From Patescibacteria group bacterium (lineage in GTDB: Bacteria; Patescibacteriota; Minisyncoccia; UBA6257; 2-01-FULL-56-20): a stretch of DNA of 64,000 nt. Location of the stretch: assembly GCA_018971305.1 (NCBI GenBank), contig JAGXBC010000001.1, forward strand, positions 245,687 through 309,686, written 5' to 3'. Both the position numbers and the translations under genes were made by a program. The notes under the pieces are model-generated. The model saw nothing but the letters and a program-made list of their open reading frames with translations. It searched no databases and was not told where the DNA came from. Positions 3,138 through 48,869 of the stretch are shown here, piece by piece (position 1 is the stretch's first letter; every line of letters begins with the position of its first letter).

Positions 3138-4246
3138 TCTCCGGCTATCGGTTTTACGATATAGATATACGAATCGTCGCCAAGGGATTTTAATTGAGCC
3201 GGCTCATTCTCGCTATTAATTCCAAAAAATACCTCTTCCGAGTTTAGAATTTTTAATGCCTCCGAAAGATATCTCCAATTAAAAATAGTTTCTTTGAGAT
3301 TTCCTTGTATTTTCCCGGATAGAAGATAATTGTTTTCCCCTATTGATTGGTCTGCCGAATTAACTTCTATTGTTTTTTTATTTTCTTGGGACTTTATTTT
3401 TACTTCATTATTTCTGCTGCCAAAAACGCTAGTTAATTTCAGTGCATTAATAAACTCTTGTTTATTAAGAATAATCTCTGTGTTGAATTTCTTCGGTATA
3501 ATAGCTTTATATTCCGGGAAATTTCCCTCTATTAATCTGGAGAGTAATTCTAATTGTTCAGTTTTGAATAAAATTTGATTGTCGTCATGATAAATTTTAA
3601 TAATTTCTTCTCCGTTCAATGTTTTTTGTAATTCTTTTGCCGTTTTAAGAGGTATTAAAACTTTAAATTTTTGTTCATAATTAGTTTTAAATTCGTCTTT
3701 ATTTATTGTTTTTTCTGCTAAACGAAAGCTGTCCGTCGCAGCCAATTTTATTTCATCTATAGAAAAATCAAATAATACTGAATTTAATTCCAGTCTTAAT
3801 TCTGAAAATTGTGAGGCAATAAGGACTTGATTTAATGAATTCTTTATTATTTCTGCTTTAATTTCAATAAATTCTTTTTGATTTTTTATCTTGGGAGTTA
3901 TAGGGAAATCTTCTGCCGGGGCTCCCTGAATAACAGCTTCATAATTATCTGTTTTTATAATTAATTTATTGTTTTTATTTTCTATATTTAACCTATCACT
4001 TTCGAGGTTATTAACGATATTTGATAATAAATTAACAGGTACGGTAAACCTTCCGTTTTCTATAACTTTTCCCAGAACAGAGAAACTTGAGGCAATTTCT
4101 AGGTCTGTTGATGTTATTTTTATTTTATTCCCGTCGGTTTCTAAAAGAATATTTTTTAATATCGGTAAATTAAGATTTTCATTATTTATTCTCTCTACAA
4201 CAAAAACACCTTTTTTAAGATTATCTTTTATAACTATAAATTTCAT
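3134..4246 (-). CDS. dnaN: DNA polymerase III beta sliding clamp
   Basis: 370 aa, immediately downstream of dnaA on the same strand. Three-domain clamp-like repeat organisation. N-terminus MKFIVIKDNLKKGV is typical of DnaN. Confidence 0.8.
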   Translation of the reverse strand: MKFIVIKDNLKKGVFVVERINNENLNLPILKNILLETDGNKIKITSTDLEIASSFSVLGKVIENGRFTVPVNLLSNIVNNLESDRLNIENKNNKLIIKTDNYEAVIQGAPAEDFPITPKIKNQKEFIEIKAEIIKNSLNQVLIASQFSELRLELNSVLFDFSIDEIKLAATDSFRLAEKTINKDEFKTNYEQKFKVLIPLKTAKELQKTLNGEEIIKIYHDDNQILFKTEQLELLSRLIEGNFPEYKAIIPKKFNTEIILNKQEFINALKLTSVFGSRNNEVKIKSQENKKTIEVNSADQSIGENNYLLSGKIQGNLKETIFNWRYLSEALKILNSEEVFFGINSENEPAQLKSLGDDSYIYIVKPIAGD

Positions 4247-5959: not shown

Positions 5960-6094
5960 ATGTCCGTTACCTATCAGCCCAAGAAGAGGAAGCGCGCAAA
6001 AGCCCACGGCTTTCGCTCTAGGCAAAGAACACCGGGCGGCCGCAGGGTTTTGGCGAAAAGGCGTCTCAAAAAAAGGCGACGCCTAGCAGTTTAA
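5960..6094 (+). CDS. rpmH: 50S ribosomal protein L34
   Basis: Translation [44 protein letters not shown]. Unmistakable L34. Not in the ORF track because it is shorter than 60 aa. Confidence 0.9.
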
Positions 6095-7685: not shown

Positions 7686-7752
7686 TTGTCGGTGCAAATA
7701 TAATACCCCGTATATGCGGGGTATTATATTTTATGATTGGAAAATCCGGAAA

Positions 7753-9045
7753 TTATTTTAGTGATATCGCATAAACGAGACTGTCGTATCTATTAATAAA
7801 GAGAAGAGTGTTGTTAAAGACCCCAAGATTCTTGGCGTCAAGTTTTTGATTCAAGTCGGCGAAGACGGAGGTTACGTTGCCGCTAGAAAGATCTATCTTA
7901 TAAAAGTTATCCAGGGTGAATAGGGCCATCTTTTCATAATCATCCGGCAGAGAGCTGACGCTTAATTTTTGGGAATCGCGTGGGACGGCGCAATAAAGAT
8001 AGTTTTTGACCGTTACCGGCGGCTGCTTTTGGGCGGCGCTTTTCGTGGTTGTTGCCGTGGTCGAGGTTGAGACCGTAGATGTCGGATTTTGGATTTCTGT
8101 GTCAAAGGTGCATTTTGACGGCAGAGTTAGGAAGGTAAGACTGTTGATAACATTCCCTTCGGGATTGGTCAGGGACAACTTTCCCCCTACGTTTGTCAGG
8201 CTGTTTCCGCTGAGGAGCAGTCCCATTCCAGCGGACCTGCTCCAGATAGATTCCATACCGGAGTAGCCATTAACGAGCTGGGACAATGTTTTATTTTTTG
8301 TATCAATAAGCCAAACGGACCCCGAGGTGAAGGCACTGCCCCTATCGGACATGATTATGTTATTGGGGCTAATCCAGTCTAAGATCTGATCCTGGACATT
8401 CAATTTCATCAACTCAACCGCCTTAGCCTTAGAGTTTGATATGTCTAGGGTTTGGAGCGAGAGGGCGCTAGAACCATTTATGTTGGAGAAATAGGCAATC
8501 TTGTAATCATCCGGTGACCATGTTGTTGACAGGAGACCTTGTGCGAGCGGCTGCCAAGATTTACTGTCAATATCAAATACGCTTTCCTGGGGATTGGATG
8601 AGTCGCCGAAGACAGCAAGAATTTTTTTGCCGTCGTAGGAAAAATCGGCGCGGATGAGGCCCGCTATCGCCGAAGAACTTAAAACCGAAGGATTGCCGGA
8701 AGATACTTTGATTATTTGTCCCGTGGGGCGGACAAGAATCGCGTTGTTCTGCGCGTCAACATAAAAATTTATCGCGGAGCTTTGTGAGATTACCCCGAAT
8801 TTTTGTCCGGCGGAAATGGTTGGTGTCGGAGTTTGGCCGTTCGTTCCGGTGCCCTGTCCGCTCGTTTCGTTGCCGTTGTTCTGCCCGGACCCTCCTCCTG
8901 CGGTCGTTTCTGTTGGAAGCGTGCCGGTGAAGGCGTTGCCGCTGGAAGGCGAAGGCGCACCTGAGCGATAGCGCAGGAAATAACCGATGCCTATAGCAAG
9001 CGCGATAACACCGACGATTCCTAAGATGTAATAGATGCGCTTCAT
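7753..9045 (-). CDS. membrane-anchored protein with a G/S/T-rich linker and PD40 (TolB-like) beta-propeller-type repeats; last gene of the T4SS-like operon
   Basis: N-terminal TM (YYILGIVGVIALAIGIGYFL). Low-complexity GGGSGQNNGNETSGQGTGTNGQTPTPT. Repeated motifs resembling PD40 (TTWSPDDYKIAYFSN, DGKKILAVFGD). Confidence 0.5.
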   Translation of the reverse strand: MKRIYYILGIVGVIALAIGIGYFLRYRSGAPSPSSGNAFTGTLPTETTAGGGSGQNNGNETSGQGTGTNGQTPTPTISAGQKFGVISQSSAINFYVDAQNNAILVRPTGQIIKVSSGNPSVLSSSAIAGLIRADFSYDGKKILAVFGDSSNPQESVFDIDSKSWQPLAQGLLSTTWSPDDYKIAYFSNINGSSALSLQTLDISNSKAKAVELMKLNVQDQILDWISPNNIIMSDRGSAFTSGSVWLIDTKNKTLSQLVNGYSGMESIWSRSAGMGLLLSGNSLTNVGGKLSLTNPEGNVINSLTFLTLPSKCTFDTEIQNPTSTVSTSTTATTTKSAAQKQPPVTVKNYLYCAVPRDSQKLSVSSLPDDYEKMALFTLDNFYKIDLSSGNVTSVFADLNQKLDAKNLGVFNNTLLFINRYDSLVYAISLK

Positions 9046-9083
9046 GTAATTCTAATTAATGATAATTATATAGAAAGATATGG

Positions 9084-10016
9084 TTACCTTGTTGAAAGCC
9101 ATCTAAGGAGCGGAGATACCGCCCAAGTACCTCCCATCAATGGACTCCCGGCCTTGAATGATATGGTTGTTCCGAGTAGAAGATCGTGTAATTGAGGGTC
9201 TAGAAAAAGTGACTGTGAAAACGTAGCAAAATGAGCGCCGTTCGGATCGGGTGTGAGTTTTAGCTTATAACCCGGGGTAGGAATGAGATAATCCGATGTT
9301 AAACCACTATAAAGGACTACATCTATAGTTGGAACACCAGAACAATCCCCATTAATCGTTCCGTCCATATAAACTGTATCTCCAGTGTAGGCAGTATAGG
9401 ACTGTGTTGATATCGTGTTTTGGTTGTTGGCGTCTTTCCATACTAAAGTAGCACCAGTTATGGTGCAGGTAGTTAGTGATGCTGTATTACCACAACCCTT
9501 ACTACTATTAGTATCGAGCAAAAAACAAGGATTACCACCACAACCCTGAATTGTTGAGCAGCTTGGCGCGCAGGCCAATATTCCATTAGGAGCAGCACAA
9601 CCATACATTGTTTGCCCACTCGACAAACTTACCCCTATCGACGACACATTAGCCGGAGATAGTGTGGGCAGATTGAGGTTAACAAGATTGGGGTTGATAA
9701 CGTTCAGTATAAGATATGCTCCACCAAGGAGAACTAAGCCCAATAAAGCGCTTTTTATCCAATCTTTACCCTCGCTTTGTCCGGAAGGATTGCCTGCGGC
9801 AAAGATATACTTAACTCCACCGAATACCACGGCTCCGAAAGCAAGGATGCCTCCTAGATATAAGGCATATTTGTAGAAAGCGTTAACGGTAGACGGAATG
9901 TCCGGACCTGTTGAGAAGGGGAGGCTCGTGTTGATGGAAACCGTGGCGGCTAAGGCCGAGTTCGCCGCGCAAGAGAACAAGAGCGCCATCGTTAACCAAT
10001 AAATAGATCTTTTCAT
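9084..10016 (-). CDS. decorated pilin: N-terminal VirB2/TrbC-like pilin domain (signal peptide + 2 hydrophobic helices) fused to a C-terminal Cys-rich extracellular domain
   Basis: The N-terminal ~110 aa are nearly identical to the N-terminus of the 59163..60386 protein (ATVSINTSLPFSTGPDIPSTVNAFYKYALYLGGILAFGAVVFGGVKYIFAAGNPSGQSEGKDWIKSALLGLVLLGGAYLILNVINPNLVNLNLPTLSPANVSS). The C-terminal half has many Cys. Confidence 0.6.
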   Translation of the reverse strand: MKRSIYWLTMALLFSCAANSALAATVSINTSLPFSTGPDIPSTVNAFYKYALYLGGILAFGAVVFGGVKYIFAAGNPSGQSEGKDWIKSALLGLVLLGGAYLILNVINPNLVNLNLPTLSPANVSSIGVSLSSGQTMYGCAAPNGILACAPSCSTIQGCGGNPCFLLDTNSSKGCGNTASLTTCTITGATLVWKDANNQNTISTQSYTAYTGDTVYMDGTINGDCSGVPTIDVVLYSGLTSDYLIPTPGYKLKLTPDPNGAHFATFSQSLFLDPQLHDLLLGTTISFKAGSPLMGGTWAVSPLLRWLSTR

Positions 10017-10705
10017 TATCGTCCGAAAGTTAAAATTTCGTTCGCGCTTGCCGCTTCCGACGAGTTGCGCGTGCCGTTTATGGAGAGCCCGACATCGAAC
10101 TCCGAACCTGGAGGGGTAGATGGATTTAGGTTAACCGTAAGCTTGGAAGGGTCCTCTAAATTTGTCGGAGACTGGTCGTTCACGGTCCAGGAGTAGTTCA
10201 ACGACGATGGCGTTGTCGTGTTGAAAAAATACGGGATAGCAGAAACCTGCAAAGAATTACCGGAGAAACTTCCATTGGGATAGGGCGAATAAATCACCGC
10301 CTCCGGAGAGACAAGTGGTATATCTATATTATCAACGAGGAGGTTGGTCGCGTAATTTGGGATTTGGATTCTTATGCTCGCAGTATCCGTGATTCCGTTT
10401 GGAACGAATCCTATGCTTTGCATGCCAGCTCCTCCGGCGAGGAGATCATCATTCAGATACCAGTAAACTGTTTGTTTAGAAATATCGGCAGGCTTTCCTC
10501 CGACCAAGAGCTCAAAAGACACGTTTATTAGAGAATTTGTCGTGGGCATAATTTTCCCCCGATAGTCCGCCGGCACATAGCTATTTGCCCGCCAAGTAAC
10601 AAGAAATTGGGGGGTTGATTGCTGGGCCCTCGCTTCGCGGATTAAAAGCAGGGCCGCGAATATAGCAGAGAACAATATTAAGACCGTATTAAGATTTTTT
10701 TTCAT
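10016..10705 (-). CDS. secreted hypothetical protein (signal peptide), T4SS-like operon member
   Basis: MKKNLNTVLILFSAIFAALLLIREARAQQ signal peptide. 229 aa with no recognisable domain. Its stop overlaps the start of the downstream gene at 10016. Confidence 0.5.
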   Translation of the reverse strand: MKKNLNTVLILFSAIFAALLLIREARAQQSTPQFLVTWRANSYVPADYRGKIMPTTNSLINVSFELLVGGKPADISKQTVYWYLNDDLLAGGAGMQSIGFVPNGITDTASIRIQIPNYATNLLVDNIDIPLVSPEAVIYSPYPNGSFSGNSLQVSAIPYFFNTTTPSSLNYSWTVNDQSPTNLEDPSKLTVNLNPSTPPGSEFDVGLSINGTRNSSEAASANEILTFGR

Positions 10706-10715
10706 CCTTTATTAA

Positions 10716-11756
10716 TTATAACAATTCCTTATTTTTATTCTTGTCACCGGTTTTACTCTTTCCGATTTGTTCTATTGGGACCGGTTCTTCCTCATCCTCT
10801 TGCTCTGGCTTCTTCTCGGCCTCAGGGAGCTTTCTCATAATATCCATTAATTTGCCCATTTCTTTAACTTCTCCCGGTTCTTCTTCTAACCCCATCTCCC
10901 CCTCCGATATTTCTTCGCCACCCTCCCCTCCGCCTGCTTCGATTTGTTCTCTTTCGCTTTCCTCAGCACCTTCCCCACCCTTACTTTCGCTGGGTTTTTC
11001 GTTGTTCTCTCCCTCGCCCCCAGTCGAACCCTCTCCTTTTTCTGCATCAGCACCCCGATCATCCGCACCTTCTCTACCCCCTCTTTCGCTGGGTTTTTCG
11101 CGCCCCTCTCCCTCTATTCCGGTCAGAGATTCTTCTTTCTCTGCTTCTTCCTCTTCTCCTGTCTCCAGCTCTTCGCGGCGTTCAGCTTCCCGACCTTCGC
11201 TTTTCGATTCTGATTGTTCTGTTCCCTCTCCCTCTAAGGATTCACCGCGACCCCCACCCGCTCCTTCTTCTGTAGTTCCTTCTGGTTTAGGTGTTGCACC
11301 TGCTTCCTCTGCTGTTTTCGCCGCACCGGCGGCTTCTTCTGTTGTCTTGGCTGCCTTGGCGGTTTCCTCCGCCGCTTTTTCCACCTCTTTTACCTCGGAG
11401 CCAGCTTCGTTTTCTGGTGCTGCAACTTTGGCTGCAAGTTCGGCCGCCTTTTCAAATTTAGGATGATCATCGGCATAAAATGTTAATAACAACATTGCCG
11501 TCATCCATGGAAGATCTCCTAAAACAGGCACAACTCCTCCGGCAAATCCATATAAGGCATAAATAGCTCCGACGCCCTTAAGCACCAAATACATAAGAAC
11601 AGCCGCCTCGCAAAAAGCGATTATCTTGGAAACTATTTCTCCGGCACCGGTAAACAGGAGAACAAGCTTTACTATATCAATCAAGCCAACCGGAAGTATT
11701 AGAAGTATGCGTTCTGGTAGAGAGATTTTGGGCTGCGGTTGCTGGTTTTCTTCCAT
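10716..11756 (-). CDS. membrane protein with an extreme Glu/Gly/Ala-rich acidic low-complexity C-terminal half
   Basis: Hydrophobic N-terminal ~110 aa (2-3 TM), then ~230 aa dominated by E, G, A, K (EEAEKEESLTGIEGEGREK...). The antisense Ser-rich ORF 10741..11466 is its shadow. Confidence 0.5.
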   Translation of the reverse strand: MEENQQPQPKISLPERILLILPVGLIDIVKLVLLFTGAGEIVSKIIAFCEAAVLMYLVLKGVGAIYALYGFAGGVVPVLGDLPWMTAMLLLTFYADDHPKFEKAAELAAKVAAPENEAGSEVKEVEKAAEETAKAAKTTEEAAGAAKTAEEAGATPKPEGTTEEGAGGGRGESLEGEGTEQSESKSEGREAERREELETGEEEEAEKEESLTGIEGEGREKPSERGGREGADDRGADAEKGEGSTGGEGENNEKPSESKGGEGAEESEREQIEAGGGEGGEEISEGEMGLEEEPGEVKEMGKLMDIMRKLPEAEKKPEQEDEEEPVPIEQIGKSKTGDKNKNKELL

Positions 11757-11777
11757 AATTGCATCTTAAAACTAAAT

Positions 11778-13532
11778 CTATGATTCCTGATCGTGTTCCT
11801 CTACCAATAACTGTTCCGGGTTGGTAGTAATAACGCGGTCTTCAAAATATGAAGCAACGACCTGTATGGCTACGTGCCGCTTATTCCCCGCGAAGAATAA
11901 TCCGGTGCCGACTTCGGCCCCCAAAAGAAAATTCTTTTCTGAATCAGTCAGGTCAAAAGCCTTAGCGACAATATCAATGGTTGCCGGCGCCTGTTTCAAA
12001 AGGAGTTGAAGCGAGGAATTCGTGATTATCGGCCGCCCGTTAGGCGAGCGCAGAAAGTCCTCAACGTCTTGCGTGATAGTCGTTAATCCTAAATAGTATT
12101 TACGGCAACGTTTGGCGATACCCAAAAGGAAAGAAGAACTATCCTCATTCTTCATCATCCACCAGGCTTCGTCGATGATGAGCAGGCGTTTTTTGAGCTG
12201 GGCGCGTACTAAATTCCAGATGAATCCCAAGATAATAAACATTGCTATCGGTCGCAATTCTTCCTCCAGGTCGCGGATAGAAAATATTATAAGTCGATTA
12301 TCAACATCTATATTGGTGGGCTGGTTTATAAACCCCGAGAAACTTCCCTTAGTGAACTTATAGAGGCGTTCGGCTATCGCTTTCCCTCCTTCAAGGTTTC
12401 GCAAGATAGTTTCCAGGTCTTCCAAAAGCGGAGATGTGGCGCCGGAAAAATCCTGTCCGGCAACTATTTCGCGCGAAGCATAGGTTTCTGTTATCGCTCT
12501 GTCGAGAAGGGCGTCTTCTTCCGGCTTAAGTTTTCCGAGCATGAGTTTAAGTAGGCTGGAGATGTTAACGATGTGGGAGCGCAGGACGTCGGAGGGAGAT
12601 TCGTCTTTGGGAATGGGCGGTATGTCAAAAGGGTTGATGTGTTCGTGCGAAGAAAGGGAAATATTAAAAATTGTTCCGCCCAGGGTATTGGAAAGTTTTT
12701 GATATTCGTTTTCGGGATCAATAACTATTACGTTTTCCGTATCCGTCATTAACGATCTTATTATTTCCAGTTTGGTGGCATATGATTTTCCCGAACCGGC
12801 TTTGGCAAAAACCACTTGATTGGCGTTCTCCAAAGAGAACCTGTCGAAAATCACCAGGCTGTTATTATGCAGGTTTATGCCGTACATAATTCCTTCATTG
12901 GAAGACAGGTCTTCGGAAACAAAGGGGAAGAAAGATGATATCGGTCCGGAATTCATCGGTGTATAGATCTGGATCTTGTCGTCGCCCGTAGGCATTATGG
13001 AGAATAATCCCTCCAGTTGCTGGAAGATGGCTGGTTTTAAATAGATAAGTTTTGCCTCCATAATTGATGTTAGTTTGGATTCTATCCGCGCCAGTTCTTC
13101 CTGTGAGTCGGCATAAACAGTTATATATACTCCTGTGTCAAAAAGTTTTTCCTGCGATTGTTGTAATGTGTCGCGCAGGGTTTCCACGTCGCGGAGGGCC
13201 GTCTCGAGCATTGGATCACGCACTAATCCCTTATCGGCGTTATCGTTTATTTGTGATTCAAGTTGGGCCGATTTTCTCCGAAGGTTTTTGAGTGCCGAGC
13301 CCGTGTCTATTGGATTTACAAAGATAGAGATATCAAATAGATTCGGAAGATCTATTATCGGTTCAAACCAGCCGGTGGAAAGATAGCGCGGATAAGAGAA
13401 AACGAAGAACGTCTTGGCTATTTTATCCCCGATCTTTAAGTAATTTTGGGCGACCTCCAATCCGGCCGGAGCGATAATCTTGGTTACGTTCTTAAAATCA
13501 CTATTTTGGCCTTCGTTTTTATTATTGGGCAT
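11778..13532 (-). CDS. virB4: VirB4/TrbE/CagE-family T4SS ATPase (central + ATPase domains)
   Basis: Walker A FAKAGSGKSYATK, Walker B LLIIDEAWWMM. The conserved VirB4 middle region is present (FFVFSYPRYLSTGWFEPII). 584 aa. Confidence 0.85.
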   Translation of the reverse strand: MPNNKNEGQNSDFKNVTKIIAPAGLEVAQNYLKIGDKIAKTFFVFSYPRYLSTGWFEPIIDLPNLFDISIFVNPIDTGSALKNLRRKSAQLESQINDNADKGLVRDPMLETALRDVETLRDTLQQSQEKLFDTGVYITVYADSQEELARIESKLTSIMEAKLIYLKPAIFQQLEGLFSIMPTGDDKIQIYTPMNSGPISSFFPFVSEDLSSNEGIMYGINLHNNSLVIFDRFSLENANQVVFAKAGSGKSYATKLEIIRSLMTDTENVIVIDPENEYQKLSNTLGGTIFNISLSSHEHINPFDIPPIPKDESPSDVLRSHIVNISSLLKLMLGKLKPEEDALLDRAITETYASREIVAGQDFSGATSPLLEDLETILRNLEGGKAIAERLYKFTKGSFSGFINQPTNIDVDNRLIIFSIRDLEEELRPIAMFIILGFIWNLVRAQLKKRLLIIDEAWWMMKNEDSSSFLLGIAKRCRKYYLGLTTITQDVEDFLRSPNGRPIITNSSLQLLLKQAPATIDIVAKAFDLTDSEKNFLLGAEVGTGLFFAGNKRHVAIQVVASYFEDRVITTNPEQLLVEEHDQES

Positions 13533-13568
13533 ATATTTATTTGTGCCGATAGTTAGGTGGTTAAAAAA

Positions 13569-14243
13569 TTATAATCCAGATTTTTCGGAAGCTATATTCA
13601 CACCTTCTTTCTCAACGGTTTCCGGATTGTAAAAATTATAGAAGAGCTCTATTAATTGTTCGTTGTTCAGGACGACGGCTTCCAGCCCTATCGATAAAAG
13701 CCCCTCCAATACTTGGTTCACGCGCTGTTTCAGCTGGGCAAGGTTTTCATTGAAACGCATCATCGTTTCCGCCTTAGCCTTTTCTTCGGCAGCATCATTC
13801 TTTTTGCCGAAGAATGGCAGGATTTTACTTATGGATTCCTGGTTTGGAAGCATCAGGGGGGAAAACGGCACAACCACCAGAAAGGCCTTTTCCATGATGG
13901 CATTTTTTTGTACGAAACCGCGCACAAATTCTATGTACTCCTCCGTTTGGTTCTGCAGAAGCGGCGACTTCTCTTTGGCTTCGTATTTAGCAAGGCCGCT
14001 CAAGTATTTTTCTATATTTACCTTCCGGGAATGGATGATGACTTGCATCGGAAAATCCAGGCCATTCAAAAAATTTTGGTAGGCCTGCGTTACGATGTTC
14101 TGCTCCATTTCAGATTTCAGGGCAAAATTAATTCCGCTTACCATAATAACCTGGCGCAGACTGCCGTTTTTCATTACCACCGTGTCTTGCACAATGTCTT
14201 TTATAGACACCAGGTCTTGAGTGTTCGCAAAATTTTTAGGCAT
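13569..14243 (-). CDS. VirB4 N-terminal domain (CagE/TrbE/VirB N-domain) as a separate ORF, i.e. a split VirB4
   Basis: KNGSLRQVIMVSGINFALKSEMEQNIVTQAYQNFLNGLDFPMQVIIHSRKVNIEKYL resembles the VirB4 N-domain (DGSL..v..v.G.d....s.ee...). It lies 36 nt upstream of the ATPase ORF on the same strand. Confidence 0.55.
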   Translation of the reverse strand: MPKNFANTQDLVSIKDIVQDTVVMKNGSLRQVIMVSGINFALKSEMEQNIVTQAYQNFLNGLDFPMQVIIHSRKVNIEKYLSGLAKYEAKEKSPLLQNQTEEYIEFVRGFVQKNAIMEKAFLVVVPFSPLMLPNQESISKILPFFGKKNDAAEEKAKAETMMRFNENLAQLKQRVNQVLEGLLSIGLEAVVLNNEQLIELFYNFYNPETVEKEGVNIASEKSGL

Positions 14244-14284
14244 CTTTTTATTTTATTATACCTTTTAATTACCCAATTCTAAAT

Positions 14285-14782
14285 TTATCTGTAATCAATG
14301 CGCCGTGCCGCCTCGCGATCTCCTGTGACGTGCTGGAATATTTGGTACTGATCATCAACCTTCTGCATGAATTGTTGGTTGGATACTTTTGTGCCGCTTT
14401 GCAGGTTTTTCCAGGCGCTGCGTAGCGCCGCTCCAGAAACAATATTCTCTAGTGAGAAATTACCAGACACTCCAAGCCCATCACTACCCTTGACCGTTTC
14501 CGGATTTTCCGGCTGCCAGACGTACACCTGCGGTTTCCAATAAAAACCGAAGGCGCTTAGAACCACGCTCGGTAGGGCTCTCCCCTCCACTCTTATAAAT
14601 GCCAGAGCCAGAGATCCGCCTACAAGGAAAATAGAAAGCATGGCAAAAAGCCATGGCTGTACTGTGAAATATAGGAGGAAACTAAGAATTCCTGCAGAGC
14701 CTACGTAGACGAACTGTTTAATAGTGAAGGGACCGACGAGCTTGTCTTCCGTTTGAATAAATTGAGGGACCTGAAATTGCAT
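14285..14782 (-). CDS. VirB3/PrgI-like small membrane protein
   Basis: 165 aa with two adjacent TM helices (FVYVGSAGILSFLLYFTVQPWLFAMLSIFLVGGSLALAFI). It sits immediately upstream of VirB4, as PrgI/VirB3 does in Gram-positive-type T4SS. Confidence 0.5.
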   Translation of the reverse strand: MQFQVPQFIQTEDKLVGPFTIKQFVYVGSAGILSFLLYFTVQPWLFAMLSIFLVGGSLALAFIRVEGRALPSVVLSAFGFYWKPQVYVWQPENPETVKGSDGLGVSGNFSLENIVSGAALRSAWKNLQSGTKVSNQQFMQKVDDQYQIFQHVTGDREAARRIDYR

Positions 14783-14899
14783 TGTTTTTAGGTTTTACCC
14801 ACCTGCCTCGTCTGCCGACTGGCAGGGCTATTTTAGGTGTTTGGCTTTTAGTTGATCTTAGCGGGGGCTTCCTAAAAGCCAAAAGTCAAAACCTAAAAG

Positions 14900-16156
14900 C
14901 TAGGTGTTTATTGGAGGCTTCGGCAGATTAACGTCTGATTGGTTTAGAGCTTGCGATGGCGACTGATCGCCGGGAATAGCTTTATTTTTTTCCAATATTT
15001 TTATTTTCTCAAACTCGCCCATTGTATCTTTAATTTGCGGTAAAGATTGTGGCGGTTCTGCTCTTTTGATTATCGGTGATCCTGCAAAGAGCGGTCTGAC
15101 TTGTTCGTTATTCCCCTCTATTTTTTTTGTTCCGGTGTCGTTCGCGATGGGCTGTGGCATGTCACCCACAATCGTCTTTAGTCCGGTGTAGTGTACTACC
15201 CTGGGCTGTTCTTGTTTCTGGGCAATAATTTCTGGTTGTGTGTTTGGGGCAGATGGCTGTTGGCTCTTTATATCTTTTGTAATTGGAGAGAAAACAAATT
15301 TATCCATTTTTGCCACCGGCGGACGTGGTGGTGGGGCTGGCTTCATTACTCCTTTATTTGTCGTGAATGAAACGGAGCCGCCGATTTCTATTTTTGCCGG
15401 TCCAAGCGGAGCTTGTCTGTCCTTAGTTTCTGAAATTTTCTGTTCGGGGATATTTATTCTGAACTCCGAGGCCGATTTTGTAGGAGAAGCCGGAGCTTCT
15501 TCGCGATGAAGCATTGCCGGGGGCGGTTCGTCGGGGGATTCTTCGGTTGATATTTTTTCTGTCCCATAATCAATACGTTCCGCTTTCTGGTTCTGTATTC
15601 CTTGCCGCCTATCACTCACCGCTTGTTGCTGGGCGGGAGATTCAGTGAGACGTGACGGTGGTATTTTCTTTCCCAACTCCATTCTCTCAAATTCCCCGAT
15701 GGGCTCTTTCTGTTTTTCCACCTGTAGTGTGGCGGAGAGCGTGGGTTTTGCAGAGACGAATGTTTCGCCGATATCTATCCCTCCCGGTCGGCGGATTTCT
15801 TCCATTACCCTCGGAGCGATCATATCAAATTTTGAAATCGGTTCATGCACAGACATAATATCGGCTTTCAGGGGATCAAAAATTCTCTTGTTTATCGCGC
15901 CGGCTATTGTGTCTGCGGCCTGCGGTACGATTCCCAACTCTTTAAGCTCTCCCGCCATGTCTTCCGGATGGATGAATCCCAAAATCACGTGGCCGAAAAT
16001 CCTTACCACATAATTTATTTGTTCTTCTGGCAGATGCTCATTGCCGCAAGTTTTCCAAATGAAATCGGAGTTCGCTTCCGAGACCATCGCTTCGCGCAAA
16101 ACATCCGGGATATTATCCCATCGTTCCAGCGCTTGATTTTGTGTGACTGTTACCAT
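14900..16156 (-). CDS. hypothetical protein with a globular N-domain and a long Pro-rich tail (T4SS-like operon member)
   Basis: 418 aa, no TM. The C-terminal two thirds are rich in P/Q/E/K (KPAPPPRPPVAKMD, PPINT). Confidence 0.45.
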   Translation of the reverse strand: MVTVTQNQALERWDNIPDVLREAMVSEANSDFIWKTCGNEHLPEEQINYVVRIFGHVILGFIHPEDMAGELKELGIVPQAADTIAGAINKRIFDPLKADIMSVHEPISKFDMIAPRVMEEIRRPGGIDIGETFVSAKPTLSATLQVEKQKEPIGEFERMELGKKIPPSRLTESPAQQQAVSDRRQGIQNQKAERIDYGTEKISTEESPDEPPPAMLHREEAPASPTKSASEFRINIPEQKISETKDRQAPLGPAKIEIGGSVSFTTNKGVMKPAPPPRPPVAKMDKFVFSPITKDIKSQQPSAPNTQPEIIAQKQEQPRVVHYTGLKTIVGDMPQPIANDTGTKKIEGNNEQVRPLFAGSPIIKRAEPPQSLPQIKDTMGEFEKIKILEKNKAIPGDQSPSQALNQSDVNLPKPPINT

Positions 16157-16164
16157 GTTTTATT

Positions 16165-18738
16165 TTATGGTCTATTATTTCCGCCGCCTTGGTTTCCGCC
16201 TCCTCCACCACCGCTACCTCCGCTACCAGGTCCGCCACCGGAGTATTCCCATGTCCCGAAGTAATTTTGTAATGTTCGTTCGTGGCCTTTGAGAGCACCT
16301 TCCAGTTGCCGTAATTTTATTGCGGCTGCTGCCTCGCCCTCTTTGTCCCCGGATGCTTTAAACGCATCTACGACCCCCTGCTGTGCATTAATGAGTTGTA
16401 TTAATAAATTAGGAATCTTTTCCATTCCGGTAGTAGCGAGCGTTTGCGAATTCATATTCCTTACTATGGTGGGTATGATGCGTTGGTTATTTTCGGTGAT
16501 TGCCGAAAGAAGTTCTTGGGTGGTGAGTGGGTGTTCTGCGTAGGCCTTTTTGCCGAAGATTGCGTTGGCGTTCATCCTTGCGGCGTCAGTGGCGGTAAGT
16601 TTTGTGGCGAATTCCTTCATGGATTCTCTAAGCAGTTGTGCTGCCGATATTTCTGTTTGTCCTGTTTGAAACATTTTTTTGGCCCATGTTTGTCCTGCTT
16701 GGAATATTTCATTTCCATCCTCATCTTTTACGGCTTCAGCTGGCTTAATTTTCGGGCTGTTCTGTTCTAGATACTCCCATCTAGCCTTATCTCCAGCAGA
16801 CTTGGCATTGGCTTCTTCTGCTGCCTCTCCCGCTTCCGTCGCGCGTTTAATAGTATCAATACTATTTTTGGCCTTATCTCCGGCGGCTTTTGCGTTATTC
16901 TCGGCTTCAGTTTGAGGGCGACCACGTTTAAGAGATGCCTTCCTCTCTGCTTCATACGCTTTGTCATATGCATTAGTAAGAACTTTATCGTGTGCAGTAG
17001 CGAACGCCTGATTAGTCATCATGGAGTACCCCGCGTTCATCACCGACACATTCCCCGGGGCCTTTGCTATATTGTACGCTTCCTCATATTTTTTATCAGC
17101 CTCGGATATTAACGGTTTCAAGGCCTTTTCCGATATTCTTGTATTCGTCGTGCTACCGGTTAGCTTATCGTAATCACCGAGCATCTTCTCCTGCCTAAAT
17201 CTTTTGATGGTGTCCATGTTGGACATAAACTCTCCGGCAGTGCTTTTGCCTCCATCAATCTTAGTATCATTGGATATCTTTTTGCTTTCTTTCAGCATTT
17301 CTATCGCCGCAAACTTCATTTCGGTTGTAAGGTTTCCAGAGTTAAGGAGTTCTGTTAACTCCGAGGAGCTTTTGCCTTTTAATCTGTCCTTCGCGCCTTC
17401 TACCATTCCCTCGTTGCTGGTTACCTTACCTAGACCGAGAGCTGTTTCCCGCTCTAGCCTGCCGGCAATAAATCCGGCTGCACCTCCCACAACCGGGATT
17501 TTCCTTATTTGCTTACTTACGGCGCCTTCTCGTAGATGCTTTTCAAGAACCTCGCCGCCCGCTTTCTGATATGCGAGCCGCCCACCCTTCTTGGCCTGCT
17601 TGCCGACGTATCCGCCGATTCCGGTTGCCGCGCTTTTAACCGCCGCCATTCCCGCGCTCGCGCCCATAATTCCTAAAGAGTTCGCCGCGATAAGCCCACC
17701 GACGGTCAGACCAAGGAGCACGAAGTCACCTAAAATATTCGGGATAAGTACTTTGAAAGTGCCGCTGAAGAATTGAGATACGGCACTTTGCGCGTTACCA
17801 AGGTTAACATTCGGCGTCGGTTCTGTTTGGGTTGAGATTCTATGGATTCCTGGTGCCATGATGACGACAAGATATAGAAAGAAAACAACTATCGGGGGGA
17901 AAAGCGCCCACCTGATGAAATTACTCCACCATTTTGTGAAATTTCCCCGTAAAGCAGGGAAAACCCAGCAAAGCCAGGCGAACGGCAGAAGAATGAAAAG
18001 TATGGACAAGTACACGTATCTTATTAAGAGCATTATGGCAAGAGTTCCTAAAACAATTACAATGCCGACAAGGGTTATTAGGGCAAAAACCATTGCCACT
18101 AAGATCACGATTACGCTTCCAGCGCTACTTCCTAGGGCGTCGGCGGTTCCCAGGTTCGAACCCCCGCTACTAGACAGCATTACTTGTGGCTGGAATAGGA
18201 TGGCGATTGCATTATTAAACCCCTGACCAGAAAATTGGTCTAAGAAAAAGTTAGTCAAACCATTTGCCGCGCTTACCAGCATGCCGCCGATGACCAATCC
18301 GAAGTTGACGAGGATAGCCATGAAGACAAGCTTCCAGAGGATTTGTTTAAGGCCGTATGTTTGGCTGCGGAGAATCGTAGCGAGAGCTATAACTATGATT
18401 CCCAGAACGAAACCAAGGTTGGCGATAGAGAGGGATGTGGCAAAGCCGGTTTGCACGAGGGCCGTATTTACTATACCCCTATTGATATCAAGGAGTAATT
18501 TTATCGCCCAACTCTCCACGGCTATAGCCAAGCTGGCAACCGTGGCCATAACGTACACGATCCCGTAAACAAGATTATTTACTACTGAGCTACCTATATC
18601 TTCTAAACATCCCGTTGCTGTAGCGCACCATGCTTTTGCCTGATGCGGAGATAATGCAAAAACCGCAAGCGCGATGAATAGTGTCGTTATAACCAATTTC
18701 GTTTTTCTATTTTTTGCTATTCGTGTAAATGTAGGCAT
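16165..18738 (-). CDS. VirB6/TrbL-like polytopic membrane protein with a long hydrophilic C-terminal domain and a Gly-rich tail
   Basis: Signal peptide plus about 7-8 TM helices in the first ~370 aa. An ~450-aa K/E/A-rich coiled-coil-like region follows. Terminal GGGPGSGGSGGGGGGNQGGGNNRP. Size and topology resemble Gram-positive VirB6 analogues (PrgH/TcpH). Confidence 0.55.
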   Translation of the reverse strand: MPTFTRIAKNRKTKLVITTLFIALAVFALSPHQAKAWCATATGCLEDIGSSVVNNLVYGIVYVMATVASLAIAVESWAIKLLLDINRGIVNTALVQTGFATSLSIANLGFVLGIIVIALATILRSQTYGLKQILWKLVFMAILVNFGLVIGGMLVSAANGLTNFFLDQFSGQGFNNAIAILFQPQVMLSSSGGSNLGTADALGSSAGSVIVILVAMVFALITLVGIVIVLGTLAIMLLIRYVYLSILFILLPFAWLCWVFPALRGNFTKWWSNFIRWALFPPIVVFFLYLVVIMAPGIHRISTQTEPTPNVNLGNAQSAVSQFFSGTFKVLIPNILGDFVLLGLTVGGLIAANSLGIMGASAGMAAVKSAATGIGGYVGKQAKKGGRLAYQKAGGEVLEKHLREGAVSKQIRKIPVVGGAAGFIAGRLERETALGLGKVTSNEGMVEGAKDRLKGKSSSELTELLNSGNLTTEMKFAAIEMLKESKKISNDTKIDGGKSTAGEFMSNMDTIKRFRQEKMLGDYDKLTGSTTNTRISEKALKPLISEADKKYEEAYNIAKAPGNVSVMNAGYSMMTNQAFATAHDKVLTNAYDKAYEAERKASLKRGRPQTEAENNAKAAGDKAKNSIDTIKRATEAGEAAEEANAKSAGDKARWEYLEQNSPKIKPAEAVKDEDGNEIFQAGQTWAKKMFQTGQTEISAAQLLRESMKEFATKLTATDAARMNANAIFGKKAYAEHPLTTQELLSAITENNQRIIPTIVRNMNSQTLATTGMEKIPNLLIQLINAQQGVVDAFKASGDKEGEAAAAIKLRQLEGALKGHERTLQNYFGTWEYSGGGPGSGGSGGGGGGNQGGGNNRP

Positions 18739-18746
18739 CGCAGTTT

Positions 18747-20618
18747 TTATAGATTAAGCAGTGAGCCGCCGGTGAATTTTCCGATAAGGCCATTTATGAA
18801 CGAAGCAAGGAATCCTGCTACGGCGTTCGCGTTCGCGGAAAGATGAATGTCGCCTCCAAGAGCGCTGGATAGTTTGTTGCCGATAGTGGCTCCAGGTGTG
18901 GTTATGAGTTGTTTAGATAGGCTTGGCGTTTTACATACTTCAGCGCTACAAGTTCCATTGGTACAGGTTGTTAGTTGGGTCTGAGTGTAGCCTGCTTGAA
19001 TTTCGTTGTTGACATTCGCTGTTATGGTGTTTACAGCATCTGTTTGGCTTTGGCCCGTAATATCGTTCACATCATAAGATGCGCTATATGGCAAGCAATC
19101 TCCGCCACTGCTTATGCCACCCCCAGTGTCTGTCCCGGGGAAACCTTGGCCGGCGACGGCTCTGTTTACTTGGGAGTTAAGCGCCGCGGCCGCATCTGAC
19201 AATTGTTTGTCGTGGGCGAGAGACAGGAATCCGAAAAAGTTATTATTTGGCCGCAACATTGCTCCGAAACCATTCCATCCCCCCCTGCTGAAATCGCCAT
19301 AGAAAGCATTTGCATCTGTTAAGACGAGCCTTAAGTCGCTTTTCGGAGTCGCATTTAGTGCCGTAAGGTTTAACATTTTCCCCACTAAACCGCTGAAGGA
19401 CGGATCTCCGCGGGCTACGCTCATGGTAAGTGATTGAGCCGCTGCCGTATCAAACGCTTTAGCCTGGTAATTCAGCCAATTGGTTATGAATTTCGGAGCG
19501 CCGGAACCCTGCACATACTTGACCATTGCCTGTTGTATTGTGTTTACAAGTTGCGTTCTTAGGACCAGTATGAGGGCTTGTTCTATAATCTTCCAGATAT
19601 TCGTTACAATATCGTTTATCAATGAGCTAATTTGGGTGCCCAAGCGTATGGGGCCAGTATAGTCAGCGTACGCTGTTTTGACGCCGATTAATTGATTTAT
19701 AAATGCCAAGACCCCCGTCTTTGTTTCTTGATGCACGGAGAGAGATTTTTGCAATCCGGCTTTTTCAAACTCGGTTTGTAGGTCGGAAGCTACGGTAGGC
19801 AGGACATTTTTTTCTGCTTGGGCGATAAGATAAGTTTTCACAGGATCGTCAGTTGTTTCCACATTTACTCCCATGTCGGCGAAGTTTTTTTCATAAACTA
19901 TCGCCGCGAGCAGGCTTTTATGGAAGCCAACAAGCGTAGACGGAATTGTTATCGATTGTGTGCTGCTTGCGGCCTTAGCTAACGTTTCGGCAACCGGCTG
20001 AAGTTCGCTCGGGTTTGCCGTGGTCGGATCTTTTTCTAAAAAGGCCGTAATAACTTGATTGGTCGTATATTGATTAAATATATTATCCAGCTCGGTGATG
20101 TATCTCTCTTTGGCGGCCACCGAGTTGTCGTCGGAAATATTGACCGTCAGTGCCTTGGCCTCGGCAATCCAGTCCGGAGCCTGGAGGGTCTGTATTTCGG
20201 GGGCGCCCGTTAGCTGATTTAGTAAGCTCGTCTGGTCCGGCATATTCAGCGAAGTTTGGCCGTCGGCGGTTTGTTGCGGTCCGGAGGGATTTGCGAGAAC
20301 AATTTGCCGCGCAAAACTGTCGGCAAAATCATGCGTAAGGTTCCCGGTTGTCTCCGCCGGCGGTAAGTCGCTGGCTTTTATCGCAACCGATCCGGCCGAA
20401 TTAACTGTTTGATTATCTGTTATTTGGGGAGCAACTGCATACTGATCCGTAAAAGCATTGCCAGGCACCAAATTGGCATAATTCTGTGACTGGTTGGAGA
20501 TGTTAGCTTGCTGGGTTAGGGTCTGGTTATTTTGCCAGTCGAGAAAAATCAAACCCGCGGAACTCATAATTGCCGCCAAAACCAAAAACCCCCCTATTAA
20601 CTTTTTTAAATCTATCAT
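18747..20618 (-). CDS. large membrane-anchored extracytoplasmic protein, first gene of the T4SS-like operon
   Basis: N-terminal TM LIGGFLVLAAIMSSAGLIFL, then ~590 aa rich in Q/T/N/S. No catalytic motif recognised. Confidence 0.5.
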   Translation of the reverse strand: MIDLKKLIGGFLVLAAIMSSAGLIFLDWQNNQTLTQQANISNQSQNYANLVPGNAFTDQYAVAPQITDNQTVNSAGSVAIKASDLPPAETTGNLTHDFADSFARQIVLANPSGPQQTADGQTSLNMPDQTSLLNQLTGAPEIQTLQAPDWIAEAKALTVNISDDNSVAAKERYITELDNIFNQYTTNQVITAFLEKDPTTANPSELQPVAETLAKAASSTQSITIPSTLVGFHKSLLAAIVYEKNFADMGVNVETTDDPVKTYLIAQAEKNVLPTVASDLQTEFEKAGLQKSLSVHQETKTGVLAFINQLIGVKTAYADYTGPIRLGTQISSLINDIVTNIWKIIEQALILVLRTQLVNTIQQAMVKYVQGSGAPKFITNWLNYQAKAFDTAAAQSLTMSVARGDPSFSGLVGKMLNLTALNATPKSDLRLVLTDANAFYGDFSRGGWNGFGAMLRPNNNFFGFLSLAHDKQLSDAAAALNSQVNRAVAGQGFPGTDTGGGISSGGDCLPYSASYDVNDITGQSQTDAVNTITANVNNEIQAGYTQTQLTTCTNGTCSAEVCKTPSLSKQLITTPGATIGNKLSSALGGDIHLSANANAVAGFLASFINGLIGKFTGGSLLNL

Positions 20619-20728: not shown

Positions 20729-21595
20729 TTATTTGTCCAATAAATCCGCTATTTTTTTGATATCTTCGATGCTTAAATTTTGCGGCCTATCGTTTGGTTT
20801 TATATCAATTTTTTGCAATTTTTCCGAGATCCACTCCTTCGTTTTCCGTGGTTGGTAATTCGCGGCCAAATTGTTGAGTATTGTCTTCCGCGGTTGAGCA
20901 AATAGCATGCGAATTGTTTTATAGTAATTTATGCTTCTGTCTTCTGGCTTCTGATTTATAACTTCCAACCTTATCACTGCTGAATCTACTTCCGGAGGCG
21001 GGGAAAAATTTTCCCGTGACACCCTCATCACGATTTTCGCTATCGCCCAAAACTGGATGCTCGCGGCAAGGCGGTTCATCCCGTTGGGGGCAGGTGTGCG
21101 CTGCGGGCCCTCGCAGCCTCTAACGGGATTCATTTTCGGCACAGCGCAGATTCTTTCTGCAACCTCGTTTTGAATCATAAAGACGCACAACTCCGGCTTA
21201 TTCTCCAGCTCCCCGATTGTGCGAAGCAGGTGTCCAGTAATGTAGTATGGGATATTGCCGACCAATTTCCATTTTGACGTTTTCAGCTCTCCGGCAGAAA
21301 CAAGCTTAGGAATTATTTCCAGGGCATCGCCATCCACGACTTCCATATTTTTATTTTCGGAAAATTTTACACGCAGCAACTCAGCAAGTTTTTCATCTTT
21401 TTCAATCGCGACGATTGTTATCCCCACCCCGCCATTTTTGGAAATTGGAAATTGGAAATTGGAAATTTCGCTTGTCAGCTCCCCGTGCCCAGCGCCCACC
21501 TCTAAAACAACGTCGCCGGACTTCAGTTCCAATATTTTAACAATGTCTTTTAGAACGGTTCCGTTTTTAAGGAAATGTTGTCCTAGTCTTCTCAT
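20729..21595 (-). CDS. ksgA: 16S rRNA (adenine1518/1519-N6)-dimethyltransferase KsgA/RsmA
   Basis: MRRLGQHFLKNGTVLKDIV..., motif I VLEVGAGHGELT, C-terminal helical domain. It contains an ~18-aa insertion encoded by the heptanucleotide repeat listed below. Confidence 0.9.
   Translation of the reverse strand: MRRLGQHFLKNGTVLKDIVKILELKSGDVVLEVGAGHGELTSEISNFQFPISKNGGVGITIVAIEKDEKLAELLRVKFSENKNMEVVDGDALEIIPKLVSAGELKTSKWKLVGNIPYYITGHLLRTIGELENKPELCVFMIQNEVAERICAVPKMNPVRGCEGPQRTPAPNGMNRLAASIQFWAIAKIVMRVSRENFSPPPEVDSAVIRLEVINQKPEDRSINYYKTIRMLFAQPRKTILNNLAANYQPRKTKEWISEKLQKIDIKPNDRPQNLSIEDIKKIADLLDK
21440..21467. repeat. perfect tandem heptanucleotide microsatellite (GGAAATT)x4 inside the ksgA CDS
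   Basis: ggaaattggaaattggaaattggaaatt read directly from the sequence. It encodes ...EISNFQFPIS... within the KsgA insertion. Confidence 0.95.
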
Positions 21596-26956: not shown

Positions 26957-27952
26957 ATGGCCGGAGTTATTCTGGCGTCCATTCTGGTATTATCGGCGTC
27001 TTTCTCTCCGTTTCATTATTATCAACCGTCCTCGGAGGAGAGGGGAATTTTGGGCGGACCGATTGATGTTAGCGCGGAGCGGGGTGGAATTATGGATGGC
27101 TCAATTTATAGTTCAGAGCCGGTTATTACTGGTTCGGCGGTCAACAATGGTTTATATCCGCCGGATGCCGGTGTCCAAAATATGCTCATAGCTAGCGTGA
27201 GCGATCAAGGCCAGCTTGCCGGCCTTGCCTCATCTCGGAGCAATCTTCTGGACTATAAGGTACAGAAAGGAGACACTCTTTCTGGAATAGCTTCTTACTT
27301 CGGCGTTTCGCTGGACACGCTTATCAATGCCAACCCGACAATTAAGGCCAAATATTTGCAGCCGGGAGATGAATTAAACATCCTTCCTACCTCTGGCATA
27401 GTTTACACAACCAAAGAGGGAGACACGCTGGAATCAATTTCCTCTTATTTCAATATTGCCGAGGATCAAATAACCCAATTCAATTCTGCGATAAATTTCG
27501 GAGTCTTGGGTGCCGGAATCTCTCTCGTTATACCGGGAGTACATAATGTTAATGCCGCCACGGAAAATTCTCTACCCAATTATAATTCCAGTTTCGCTAT
27601 GCCCGCTAACGGTTACGACTGGGGAATATTGCATCACTATAACGCAGTAGATATCGCCGCGTCCTGCGGTACTCCGGTTAAGGCCTCGGCCGAAGGGCTC
27701 GTTGTTCCCGACGATAGTTTCGGCGATGGCACAAGCGGTTGGAATGGTGGTTATGGAGAATTCGTTCTTATAGAACACCCTTTCGGCGACAGCGTTCGCA
27801 CCCGCTACGCCCACCTGGAAAAAGTGTTAGTCAGTATCGGCGACTACGTTCAGCAGGGACAAATCATCGGCCTTATGGGTCAAACAGGCGACGCAACCGG
27901 TTGCCACGTACACTTTGAAATTTATGGAGCGCAGAATCCGTTTGCTAAGTAG
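26957..27952 (+). CDS. LysM-domain M23-family metallo-endopeptidase (cell-wall hydrolase)
   Basis: Two LysM repeats (YKVQKGDTLSGIASYFGVSLDTLINANP; YTTKEGDTLESISSYFNI). C-terminal M23 motifs HYNAVDIAA and GQTGDATGCHVHFEIY. Confidence 0.85.
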   Translation: MAGVILASILVLSASFSPFHYYQPSSEERGILGGPIDVSAERGGIMDGSIYSSEPVITGSAVNNGLYPPDAGVQNMLIASVSDQGQLAGLASSRSNLLDYKVQKGDTLSGIASYFGVSLDTLINANPTIKAKYLQPGDELNILPTSGIVYTTKEGDTLESISSYFNIAEDQITQFNSAINFGVLGAGISLVIPGVHNVNAATENSLPNYNSSFAMPANGYDWGILHHYNAVDIAASCGTPVKASAEGLVVPDDSFGDGTSGWNGGYGEFVLIEHPFGDSVRTRYAHLEKVLVSIGDYVQQGQIIGLMGQTGDATGCHVHFEIYGAQNPFAK

Positions 27953-32671: not shown

Positions 32672-32867
32672 TTGTTTACTTAAGATTATTAGGTAGGCGG
32701 AGGCAAGTCAATGCCTTGATTGGTGGTTTTATCTAACTGGATATCAGGTGAAGGTAGATTGACAACCAACAAGTTTATTCCTTGTATAAGTATTTTTAGC
32801 AATCTTATTCTCTTGAGATGTTAATAATTATTTAAACAATGCGGCAATAATATACGGCAAAACCAAT

Positions 32868-48858: not shown

Positions 48859-48869
48859 CCTATTTATTC

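Follow-up and report, generated by a model that had tools for sequence, protein, structure and literature searches.

The subject of this study is a set of genes that encode a type IV secretion system (T4SS) located in a 64-kb stretch of DNA of a Patescibacteria group bacterium; this whole stretch is referred to below as the window. The genes form a block of ten co-directional open reading frames (ORFs) on the minus strand, numbered g1 to g10 in the 5'-3' direction, which span positions 7753-20618 and are all intact (Table 1). An initial annotation, made from the sequence alone, had described ten consecutive genes of a T4SS-like operon with exactly these coordinates, and the distances between them (8, 8, 117, 41, 36, 21, 10, -1 and 38 nt, from g1 to g10) range from -1 to 117 nt. 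This extent stands as regards the operon, but the system itself reaches further, as an array of pilin genes was found at 57-63 kb of the window.

Table 1. Features of the T4SS operon, its surroundings and the distal pilin array
Feature	Position	Strand	Description
dnaN	3134-4246		left flank
dnaA	4365-5711		left flank
rpmH	5960-6094		left flank; rnpA, yidC and jag also there
Palindromic hairpin	7696-7731	.	15-bp stem, 6-nt loop; between convergent g10 and jag
g10	7753-9045	-	430 aa; membrane-anchored TolB-like (PD40) beta-propeller
g9	9084-10016	-	310 aa; VirB2-like pilin + ectodomain
g8	10016-10705	-	229 aa; anchor helix + two predicted Ig/FN3-like domains
g7	10716-11756	-	346 aa; small polytopic protein + acidic tail
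g6	11778-13532	-	584 aa; VirB4 ATPase body
g5	13569-14243	-	224 aa; TrsD-like, VirB4 N-domain (~215 residues)
g4	14285-14782	-	165 aa; PrgI/VirB3-like, 2 transmembrane segments
g3	14900-16156	-	418 aa; cytoplasmic, Pro-rich
g2	16165-18738	-	857 aa; extended VirB6-like polytopic membrane protein
g1	18747-20618	-	623 aa; bitopic surface protein
TATAAT	20632-20627	-	-10-like hexamer, 8 nt 5' of the g1 ATG at 20618
ksgA/rsmA	20729-21595	-	Pfam RrnaAD 1.8e-44; 110 nt upstream of g1
Array pilin	57381-59159	+	592 aa; pilin module C-terminal to 500-aa ectodomain, 45 Cys
Array pilin	59163-60386	+	407 aa; pilin module N-terminal to 280-aa ectodomain, 24 Cys
ORF in array	60405-60962	+	no family match
Array pilin	61023-61349	+	108 aa; also passes PF04956 TrbC/VirB2 (30.4 bits vs 27.9)
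Array pilin	61407-61808	+	133 aa; PF18895
Array pilin	61892-62356	+	154 aa; PF18895
Array pilin	62510-62869	+	119 aa; PF18895

Core components of the secretion apparatus

ORFs of at least 100 aa were scanned for protein families across the window, and a scan of species-representative genomes provided 80 related loci, on which a table of synteny was built using tblastn. The product of g6 is recognized as a VirB4 ATPase of the monoderm CD1110 family (NF045971, 401.6 bits with a cut-off of 325; PF19044, 1.8e-24), and its translation contains the Walker A (AKAGSGKS) and Walker B (LLIIDE) motifs. More than 8000 homologues of this protein were retrieved, the best 120 of which share 75-100% identity with it and bear source names that are all Patescibacteria, Paceibacteria or Parcubacteria; the identity reaches 100% with a protein from a metagenome-assembled genome of a Patescibacteria group bacterium and is 75-83% for the other top homologues. 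The preceding gene, g5, gave NCBIfam matches below the cut-offs, to models of VirB4 N-termini (NF045975, 9e-11, and TIGR00929, 2.7e-8) and to TrsD (NF041427, 2.3e-9). In a fused orthologue of 790 aa, residues 5-210 align to g5 (51% identity) and residues 223-782 to g6, and since both products are colinear with this protein, g5 and g6 together correspond to a complete VirB4, which had been proposed to be encoded by two ORFs. The TrsD/VirB4 split occurs in 73 of 78 loci (it is fused in five), and both halves are kept at 40-60% identity. Judged by this, the split is a conserved arrangement and not a sign of decay; the possibility that it marks a frameshift pseudogene was rejected.

The other core proteins are encoded upstream. 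As previously claimed, g4 is a VirB3/PrgI-like protein: it passes the gathering score of PF12666 (PrgI, 33.3 bits with a threshold of 27; model positions 2-87 of 91), and a PrgI gene lies upstream of TrsD/VirB4 in 75 of the 80 loci. By these criteria g4 is the PrgI/VirB3-like membrane anchor for VirB4, and a PDB sequence profile search with the PrgI family returned nothing relevant. The gene g2 had been labelled a VirB6/TrbL-like polytopic protein with a Gly-rich tail. Both features were found: the protein is polytopic in its N-terminal third and has about 8 hydrophobic segments, with residues ~1-360 rich in transmembrane (TM) segments, followed by a hydrophilic part of ~500 aa with a Gly-rich tail, and it was detected at the same position in 46 loci. 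Its family identity fared less well, as the Pfam TrbL/VirB6 model (positions 2-177 of 215) matched g2 with E=6.5e-4 and 20 bits, below the gathering score of 25.9, TrbL matches only one of 23 g2 orthologues, and a PDB sequence profile search with the g2 family produced no match; the assignment thus rests on architecture and position. A TM part followed by a long hydrophilic part is also the layout termed "extended VirB6" in a FEMS review of 2025 (PMC12857230). Using hhalign, a comparison of the VirB6 family with the single PrgH sequence of pCF10 gave no match, and neither did comparisons of family alignments with PrgF and PrgG of pCF10. As a positive control the PrgI family was compared with PrgI of pCF10 in the same way, and this failed too; therefore the hhalign negatives obtained with pCF10 proteins carry no weight.

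In the profile searches, which had been suggested as a check, VirB4, PrgI/VirB3 and the pilin described below pass curated cut-offs, with VirB6 staying below threshold. On the evidence of sequence, the operon thus encodes a two-piece VirB4 of the MPF_FATA/CD1110 type beside PrgI/VirB3, a probable extended VirB6 and a VirB2-like pilin. The order VirB6-VirB3-VirB4, likened earlier to Gram-positive systems, equals that of PrgH-PrgI-PrgJ in the MPF_FATA system of pCF10.

Pilins and accessory proteins

The in-operon pilin, g9, matches PF18895 (T4SS_pilin) over residues 42-107 with 41.2 bits (gathering score 26.6), and C-terminal to this domain it carries an ectodomain of 185 aa with 8 Cys, in line with its former description as a pilin-domain protein with a Cys-rich ectodomain. 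A pilin gene is present within the operon in 53 loci; its product is between 99 and 538 aa long, which shows that the C-terminal extension varies. A further six PF18895 pilin-domain genes form the distal array (57381-62869, plus strand), 37 kb from the operon. This gives seven pilin-domain genes per 64 kb, three of which are fused to large Cys-rich ectodomains. Directly upstream of the array, on the same strand, is a gene for an SBP_bac_1 solute-binding protein (56061-57344), with no permease or ATPase gene adjacent.

A 95-aa pilin core is identical in g9 (residues 32-126; 9639-9923, minus strand) and in the 407-aa pilin of the array (59265-59549, plus strand). At the DNA level 19 of the 285 nt of this core differ, all of them synonymous and none non-synonymous, while the signal peptides and ectodomains of the two proteins are unrelated. 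This points to either extreme constraint on the module or gene conversion. In the known structures of VirB2/TraA pili both termini of the pilin face outward, and therefore ectodomains fused to either the N- or the C-terminus of a pilin would sit on the surface. We infer that the small pilins would be major subunits, and the fused ones minor subunits or tip adhesins.

The remaining five products, g1, g3, g7, g8 and g10, are, by the conservation of their genes, members of the cassette, two of them with fold assignments. The initial annotation had correctly called g1 membrane-anchored, g3 Pro-rich, g7 a membrane protein with a polyacidic tail and g10 a PD40-repeat membrane protein. Its "secreted protein", g8, does have an N-terminal hydrophobic helix and a surface location, and is more exactly described by two Ig-like domains.

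The g1 protein has a single TM segment, at its N-terminus, and the large ectodomain is for the most part helical. Its family is marked by the motif W[IV]QGSGAPxFITNW, in which QGSGAPxF is invariant; orthologues (19-29% identity) occupy the same position in 19 loci, and database homologues end in C-terminal PKD domains. An AlphaFold2 (AF2) model of g1, built on an alignment of 11 sequences, had a mean predicted local distance difference test score (pLDDT) of 47 and gave nothing below E=0.4 in a Foldseek search against PDB, and a PDB sequence profile search with the g1 family also yielded nothing relevant. The g3 protein has no TM segment, contains 10.8% Pro and consists of a conserved N-terminal domain of ~110 aa and a variable, Pro-rich disordered region. 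Within this otherwise unalignable region two short motifs (PFIIHxEE-like and RVVHYSxxxT-like), which look like docking motifs, are kept across 19 orthologues. The tblastn searches found g3 in 18 loci, and the family profiles gave no matches to it.

In g7, the first ~95 aa are TM-rich and are followed by a tail of 247 aa with 76 Asp/Glu and 35 Lys/Arg. A core of ~100 aa is conserved (KISLPE ... LIPxxxxLPxxT), and in most related loci the ORF immediately 3' of virB4 encodes a small polytopic membrane protein, 21 of these aligning with a common core. A tandem duplication of 99 nt (33 codons; 72% identity) is found inside the part of g7 encoding the acidic tail (10960-11147, minus strand). This tail is probably a recent low-complexity expansion, as it is confined to the closest relatives.

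For g8, the AF2 model (pLDDT 88.5) predicts two tandem Ig/FN3-like beta-sandwiches behind the N-terminal helix, and the best Foldseek matches are tandem Ig/FN3 modules; the gene is present in 37 loci, and one homologue is annotated with PF06832. The model thus indicates a cell-surface protein. As a candidate for the missing VirB8, g8 was rejected, since its fold is that of two Ig-like sandwiches and not of NTF2. The last product of the operon, g10, found in 28 loci, has an N-terminal TM segment, a low-complexity linker and a TolB-like (PD40) propeller; its family profile matches TolB structures in PDB with E=2.4e-12, while the single sequence scores weakly. A PADLOC scan of the five accessory products for defence systems gave no matches.

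Genomic context and conservation of the cassette

The cassette is chromosomal, as was claimed, and lies in an origin-type neighbourhood, adjoined by dnaN, dnaA, rpmH, rnpA, yidC and jag. It is bounded by ksgA on one side and by jag-yidC-rnpA-rpmH/dnaA-dnaN on the other, its flanks are housekeeping, and its GC content (0.44-0.48) is like that of the rest of the window. In the convergent intergenic region between g10 and jag there is a palindromic hairpin, for which RNA folding gave -22 kcal/mol (z=-5.6; none of 200 shuffled sequences was equally stable), and which is likely a bidirectional terminator closing the operon.

The TATAAT hexamer noted earlier upstream of the first gene is indeed present 8 nt before the ATG, and of the four most closely related orthologous loci, three have a TAnAAT sequence 7-11 nt before the start of g1. 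This recurrence mildly supports a candidate promoter giving rise to a leaderless or short-leader mRNA. However, g1 need not be the start of the transcript, because ksgA lies 110 nt upstream in the same direction, no terminator-like hairpin was found in the ksgA-g1 gap and this gene order is conserved (by tblastn synteny, 40 loci have a co-directional ksgA upstream). The ksgA gene may thus be co-transcribed with the operon.

The order ksgA-g1-VirB6-g3-PrgI-TrsD-VirB4-(g7)-g8-pilin-g10 recurs in dozens of species-representative genomes, where jag, yidC and rnpA follow on the opposite strand and are themselves followed by dnaA and dnaN. Comparative genomics, another check that had been suggested, thus revealed conservation of both order and position in dozens of Paceibacteria-type species. 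Protein identities across the syntenic loci are ~20-80%, and that of VirB4 declines together with the identities of dnaA, yidC and jag. As judged from these patterns, the cassette is vertically inherited, chromosomally fixed and under purifying selection.

Neither relaxase nor VirD4 families were found among the ORFs of at least 100 aa in the window, in agreement with the initial annotation, nor, with VirD4 and the relaxase of pCF10 as tblastn queries, in the flanks of the 80 related loci. The sole T4SS-DNA_transf match in the window is VirB4 itself (E 0.06). When pCF10 proteins were used as tblastn queries against the window and the 80 loci with flanks of +/-10 kb, only PrgJ/VirB4 was detected, and PcfC (VirD4), PcfG (relaxase), PrgL and PrgK were not. 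There is no integrase adjacent to the cassette, and there are no att-like repeats at its borders.

A protein with two LysM domains and a peptidase M23 domain is encoded 6 kb upstream of the operon (26957-27952, plus strand); Quinonero-Coronel et al. (PMC12102498) took such proteins as stand-ins for VirB1.

Nature and possible role of the system

Taken together, the locus is likely a chromosomal, relaxase-less T4SS typical of Patescibacteria, in the ten-gene form of Paceibacteria-type genomes. The earlier proposal that the genome, that of an episymbiont, encodes a non-conjugative machine akin to minimised Gram-positive T4SSs is supported by the CD1110-type VirB4 and the fixed chromosomal site. 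Its statement that the system is "largely uncharacterised" is, however, out of date, as the same conclusions were reached in PMC12102498, and essentiality was reported in PMC10633639; the system is already known from publications of 2023-2025 (PMC10633639, PMC12102498) and is no new kind of system. In their survey of 3,035 Patescibacteria genomes, Quinonero-Coronel et al. 2025 (PMC12102498) found that the VirB4 proteins form a monophyletic clade within MPF_FATA and that TrsD is their commonest partner; they also described PrgI/VirB3, VirB6 and pilins of PF18895, some of the pilin genes standing in arrays of 2-11. Relaxases were rare, genes of type IV coupling proteins were mostly distant from virB4, and in Paceibacteria the T4SS was located near dnaA, dnaN, rnpA, ksgA and rpmH (PMC12102498). 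The locus analyzed here is alike in its monoderm VirB4, separate TrsD upstream, PrgI, probable VirB6-like protein and PF18895 pilins, in having neither a relaxase nor a nearby coupling protein, and in its position by dnaA, dnaN, rnpA and ksgA; nothing differs in kind. In the published work on Patescibacteria T4SSs most of the neighbouring ORFs are unassigned, whereas here five of them appear as conserved members of the cassette with partial fold assignments.

By transposon sequencing, Wang et al. 2023 (PMC10633639) showed that the Saccharibacterium Southlakia epibionticum requires its T4SS and pilins to grow epibiotically. The T4SS of S. epibionticum ML1 (SEML1_0006-0019) has no recognisable relaxase or coupling protein, and export of proteins or an alternative role, not DNA transfer, was proposed for it (PMC10633639). 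The Saccharibacteria locus differs from that described here in that its pilin array lies inside the cluster (here it is 37 kb away) and in that peptidase/lysozyme genes follow virB4 (here the nearest LysM-M23 peptidase gene is the one 6 kb upstream of the operon).

Among the conjugative systems, PrgJ of pCF10 belongs to the same NCBIfam family as the VirB4 of g6 (26-29% identity over ~550 aa), and the order TrsC(VirB3)-TrsD-TrsE(VirB4) of the Trs system of pGO1 equals PrgI-TrsD-VirB4 here (PMC12102498). In contrast to pCF10 and pGO1, no relaxase, PcfC/VirD4, PrgK-type hydrolase or PrgL/VirB8 was found, and whereas systems of the pCF10/pGO1 type are plasmid- or ICE-borne (ICE, integrative and conjugative element), the cassette appears chromosomally fixed and vertically inherited. 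Gram-positive conjugative systems are generally without VirB2-like pilins (PMC12857230), which are present here. The model of the Mycoplasma ICE VirB4 (Mbov_0397) matched the VirB4 with 305 bits and TrsD with 9e-11, both below the equivalog cut-offs, and the model of the Mycoplasma ICE pilin-like protein (NF045849, Mbov_0395) matched five of the pilins (9084-10016, 59163-60386, 61023-61349, 61892-62356 and 62510-62869) over nearly its full length, at sub-threshold E-values of 7e-6 to 2e-2. Because of these matches, pilin-like subunits may not be foreign to MPF_FATA. The Mycoplasma ICEs themselves are mobile conjugative elements, unlike the locus studied here. Non-conjugative use of a VirB4-centred apparatus is also known from ComB of H. 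pylori, Ptl of Bordetella and VirB of Brucella (PMC12857230), but these are diderm MPF_T systems with outer-membrane cores of VirB7/9/10, none of which is present here.

As to mechanism, VirB4/TrsD docked on PrgI and VirB6 would form a translocon in the cytoplasmic membrane, which would extract pilins from the membrane to build a short pilus or conduit. Contact with the host cell would fall to the Ig-like (g8), propeller (g10), PKD-type (g1) and Cys-rich pilin ectodomains, which would span the wall. The cargo passing between epibiont and host bacterium might be proteins or other substrates, and not relaxase-mobilised DNA. As the window contains neither a relaxase nor an adjacent coupling protein, the machine presumably does not conjugate DNA, and by analogy with the proposal made for the essential Saccharibacteria system, transfer of protein or other cargo seems more likely than DNA conjugation.

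Several points weigh against this interpretation. No VirB8-like component was identified in the operon (g8, the sole candidate of matching size, does not have the NTF2 fold, and PrgL gave no match), and no VirB1-type hydrolase domain was found in the ten products (nor was there a match to PrgK). The identification of g2 as VirB6 is weak, being the weakest link among the assignments. The coupling protein could lie elsewhere in the genome, beyond the visible 64 kb; the majority of Patescibacteria genomes are reported to have VirD4 homologues, which tend to lie at a distance from virB4 (PMC12102498). Moreover, the function, including pilus, substrate and host contact, is deduced entirely by analogy, and the experimental evidence on such T4SSs comes from Saccharimonadia, a different class.

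A machine of this composition might instead import environmental or host DNA into a cell unable to make nucleotides, like ComB of H. pylori or the archaeal Ced system. Nucleotide synthesis is indeed lacking in Patescibacteria (PMC10633639), the window contains no relaxase or coupling protein, and VirB4 gave a partial, weak match to CedB (4.1e-10; 38.9 bits with a cut-off of 700). We nevertheless consider DNA uptake unlikely, as the VirB4 belongs to the conjugation-type CD1110 family, and competence of S. epibionticum needs type IV pili and ComEC; deletion of comEC abolishes transformation with viability retained, while the T4SS is essential (PMC12857230). A purely adhesive organelle, in which the VirB4 apparatus assembles VirB2-like filaments displaying ectodomains and translocates nothing, would accord with the number of pilin-domain genes in the 64 kb and the three large Cys-rich ectodomains among them, with the adhesion-type folds of the accessory proteins (Ig-like, propeller and PKD) and with the lack of a coupling protein nearby. 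Such a limited role seems improbable, however, given that a probable extended VirB6-like channel subunit is retained and that type IV pili already serve adhesion in the Patescibacteria studied (PMC12857230, PMC10633639).

That the locus belongs to a conjugative element (an ICE or an integrated plasmid), with relaxase and coupling protein outside the window, might be suggested by the VirB4 family, which is named for conjugative transposons, and by the relaxases carried by a few Patescibacteria (PMC12102498). This is highly improbable: dozens of species share one chromosomal site and one gene order, neither an integrase, an att-like repeat nor a compositional shift marks the borders, and VirB4 diverges in step with its housekeeping neighbours. 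The ICE reading was rejected on the conserved synteny, the housekeeping flanks and the lack of matches to the pCF10 relaxase and VirD4 in the flanks of the relatives. There is next to no chance that the locus is a decaying remnant, with the split VirB4 and the unannotatable ORFs as pseudogene debris. VirB4 is indeed encoded in two pieces, and family matches are lacking for half of the products, but the split is shared by most species with both halves conserved, each accessory ORF is matched by orthologues in the corresponding place, g8 folds confidently and the changes in the pilin core are synonymous only. The pseudogene test that accompanied the initial annotation therefore came out in favour of an intact operon with conserved orthologues, not a degraded one.

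It is possible, though doubtful, that the Paceibacteria cassette has a distinct T4SS architecture and is not a reduced Gram-positive one. In it, the conserved, lineage-specific g1, g3, g7, g8 and g10 would replace VirB8, VirB1 and adhesins, and VirB2-like modules would act as anchors in the membrane or pilus for interchangeable Cys-rich ectodomains. In two paralogues the 95-aa core has stayed identical through 19 synonymous changes, with different ectodomains attached. If true, the system would be a modular contact organelle capable of switching host specificity. The T4SS of Patescibacteria belongs to the small number of machines on which the epibiotic life of these ultrasmall bacteria is known to depend. 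Experiments have until now been done almost entirely on Saccharibacteria, and the present locus provides a clean, complete example from Paceibacteria. Its remaining interest lies in the conserved accessory genes and the constrained pilin-ectodomain fusions, and this parts list, with five accessory genes, could guide structural or genetic work as soon as a Paceibacterium becomes tractable.

Two other features of the window deserve mention. A tyrosine recombinase of the XerC/D type (46938-47822) is encoded beside a cluster of five tRNA genes (Leu, Val, Arg, Pro and Phe; 46938-50643); at a distance of 26 kb, it has no link with the operon. The E. coli DnaA-box consensus is not enriched across the window (19 found, 13.5 expected). 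A 485-nt, AT-rich (GC ~0.32) intergenic region between divergent genes (32672-33156) coincides with a sharp change of sign of the GC skew and with the cumulative-skew minimum of the window, and contains TTTGGCGA[CT]AAACA three times, once in inverted orientation. This region is a candidate replication origin, ~27 kb from dnaA, and if it is the origin, the T4SS operon would point the same way as the leftward fork moves.

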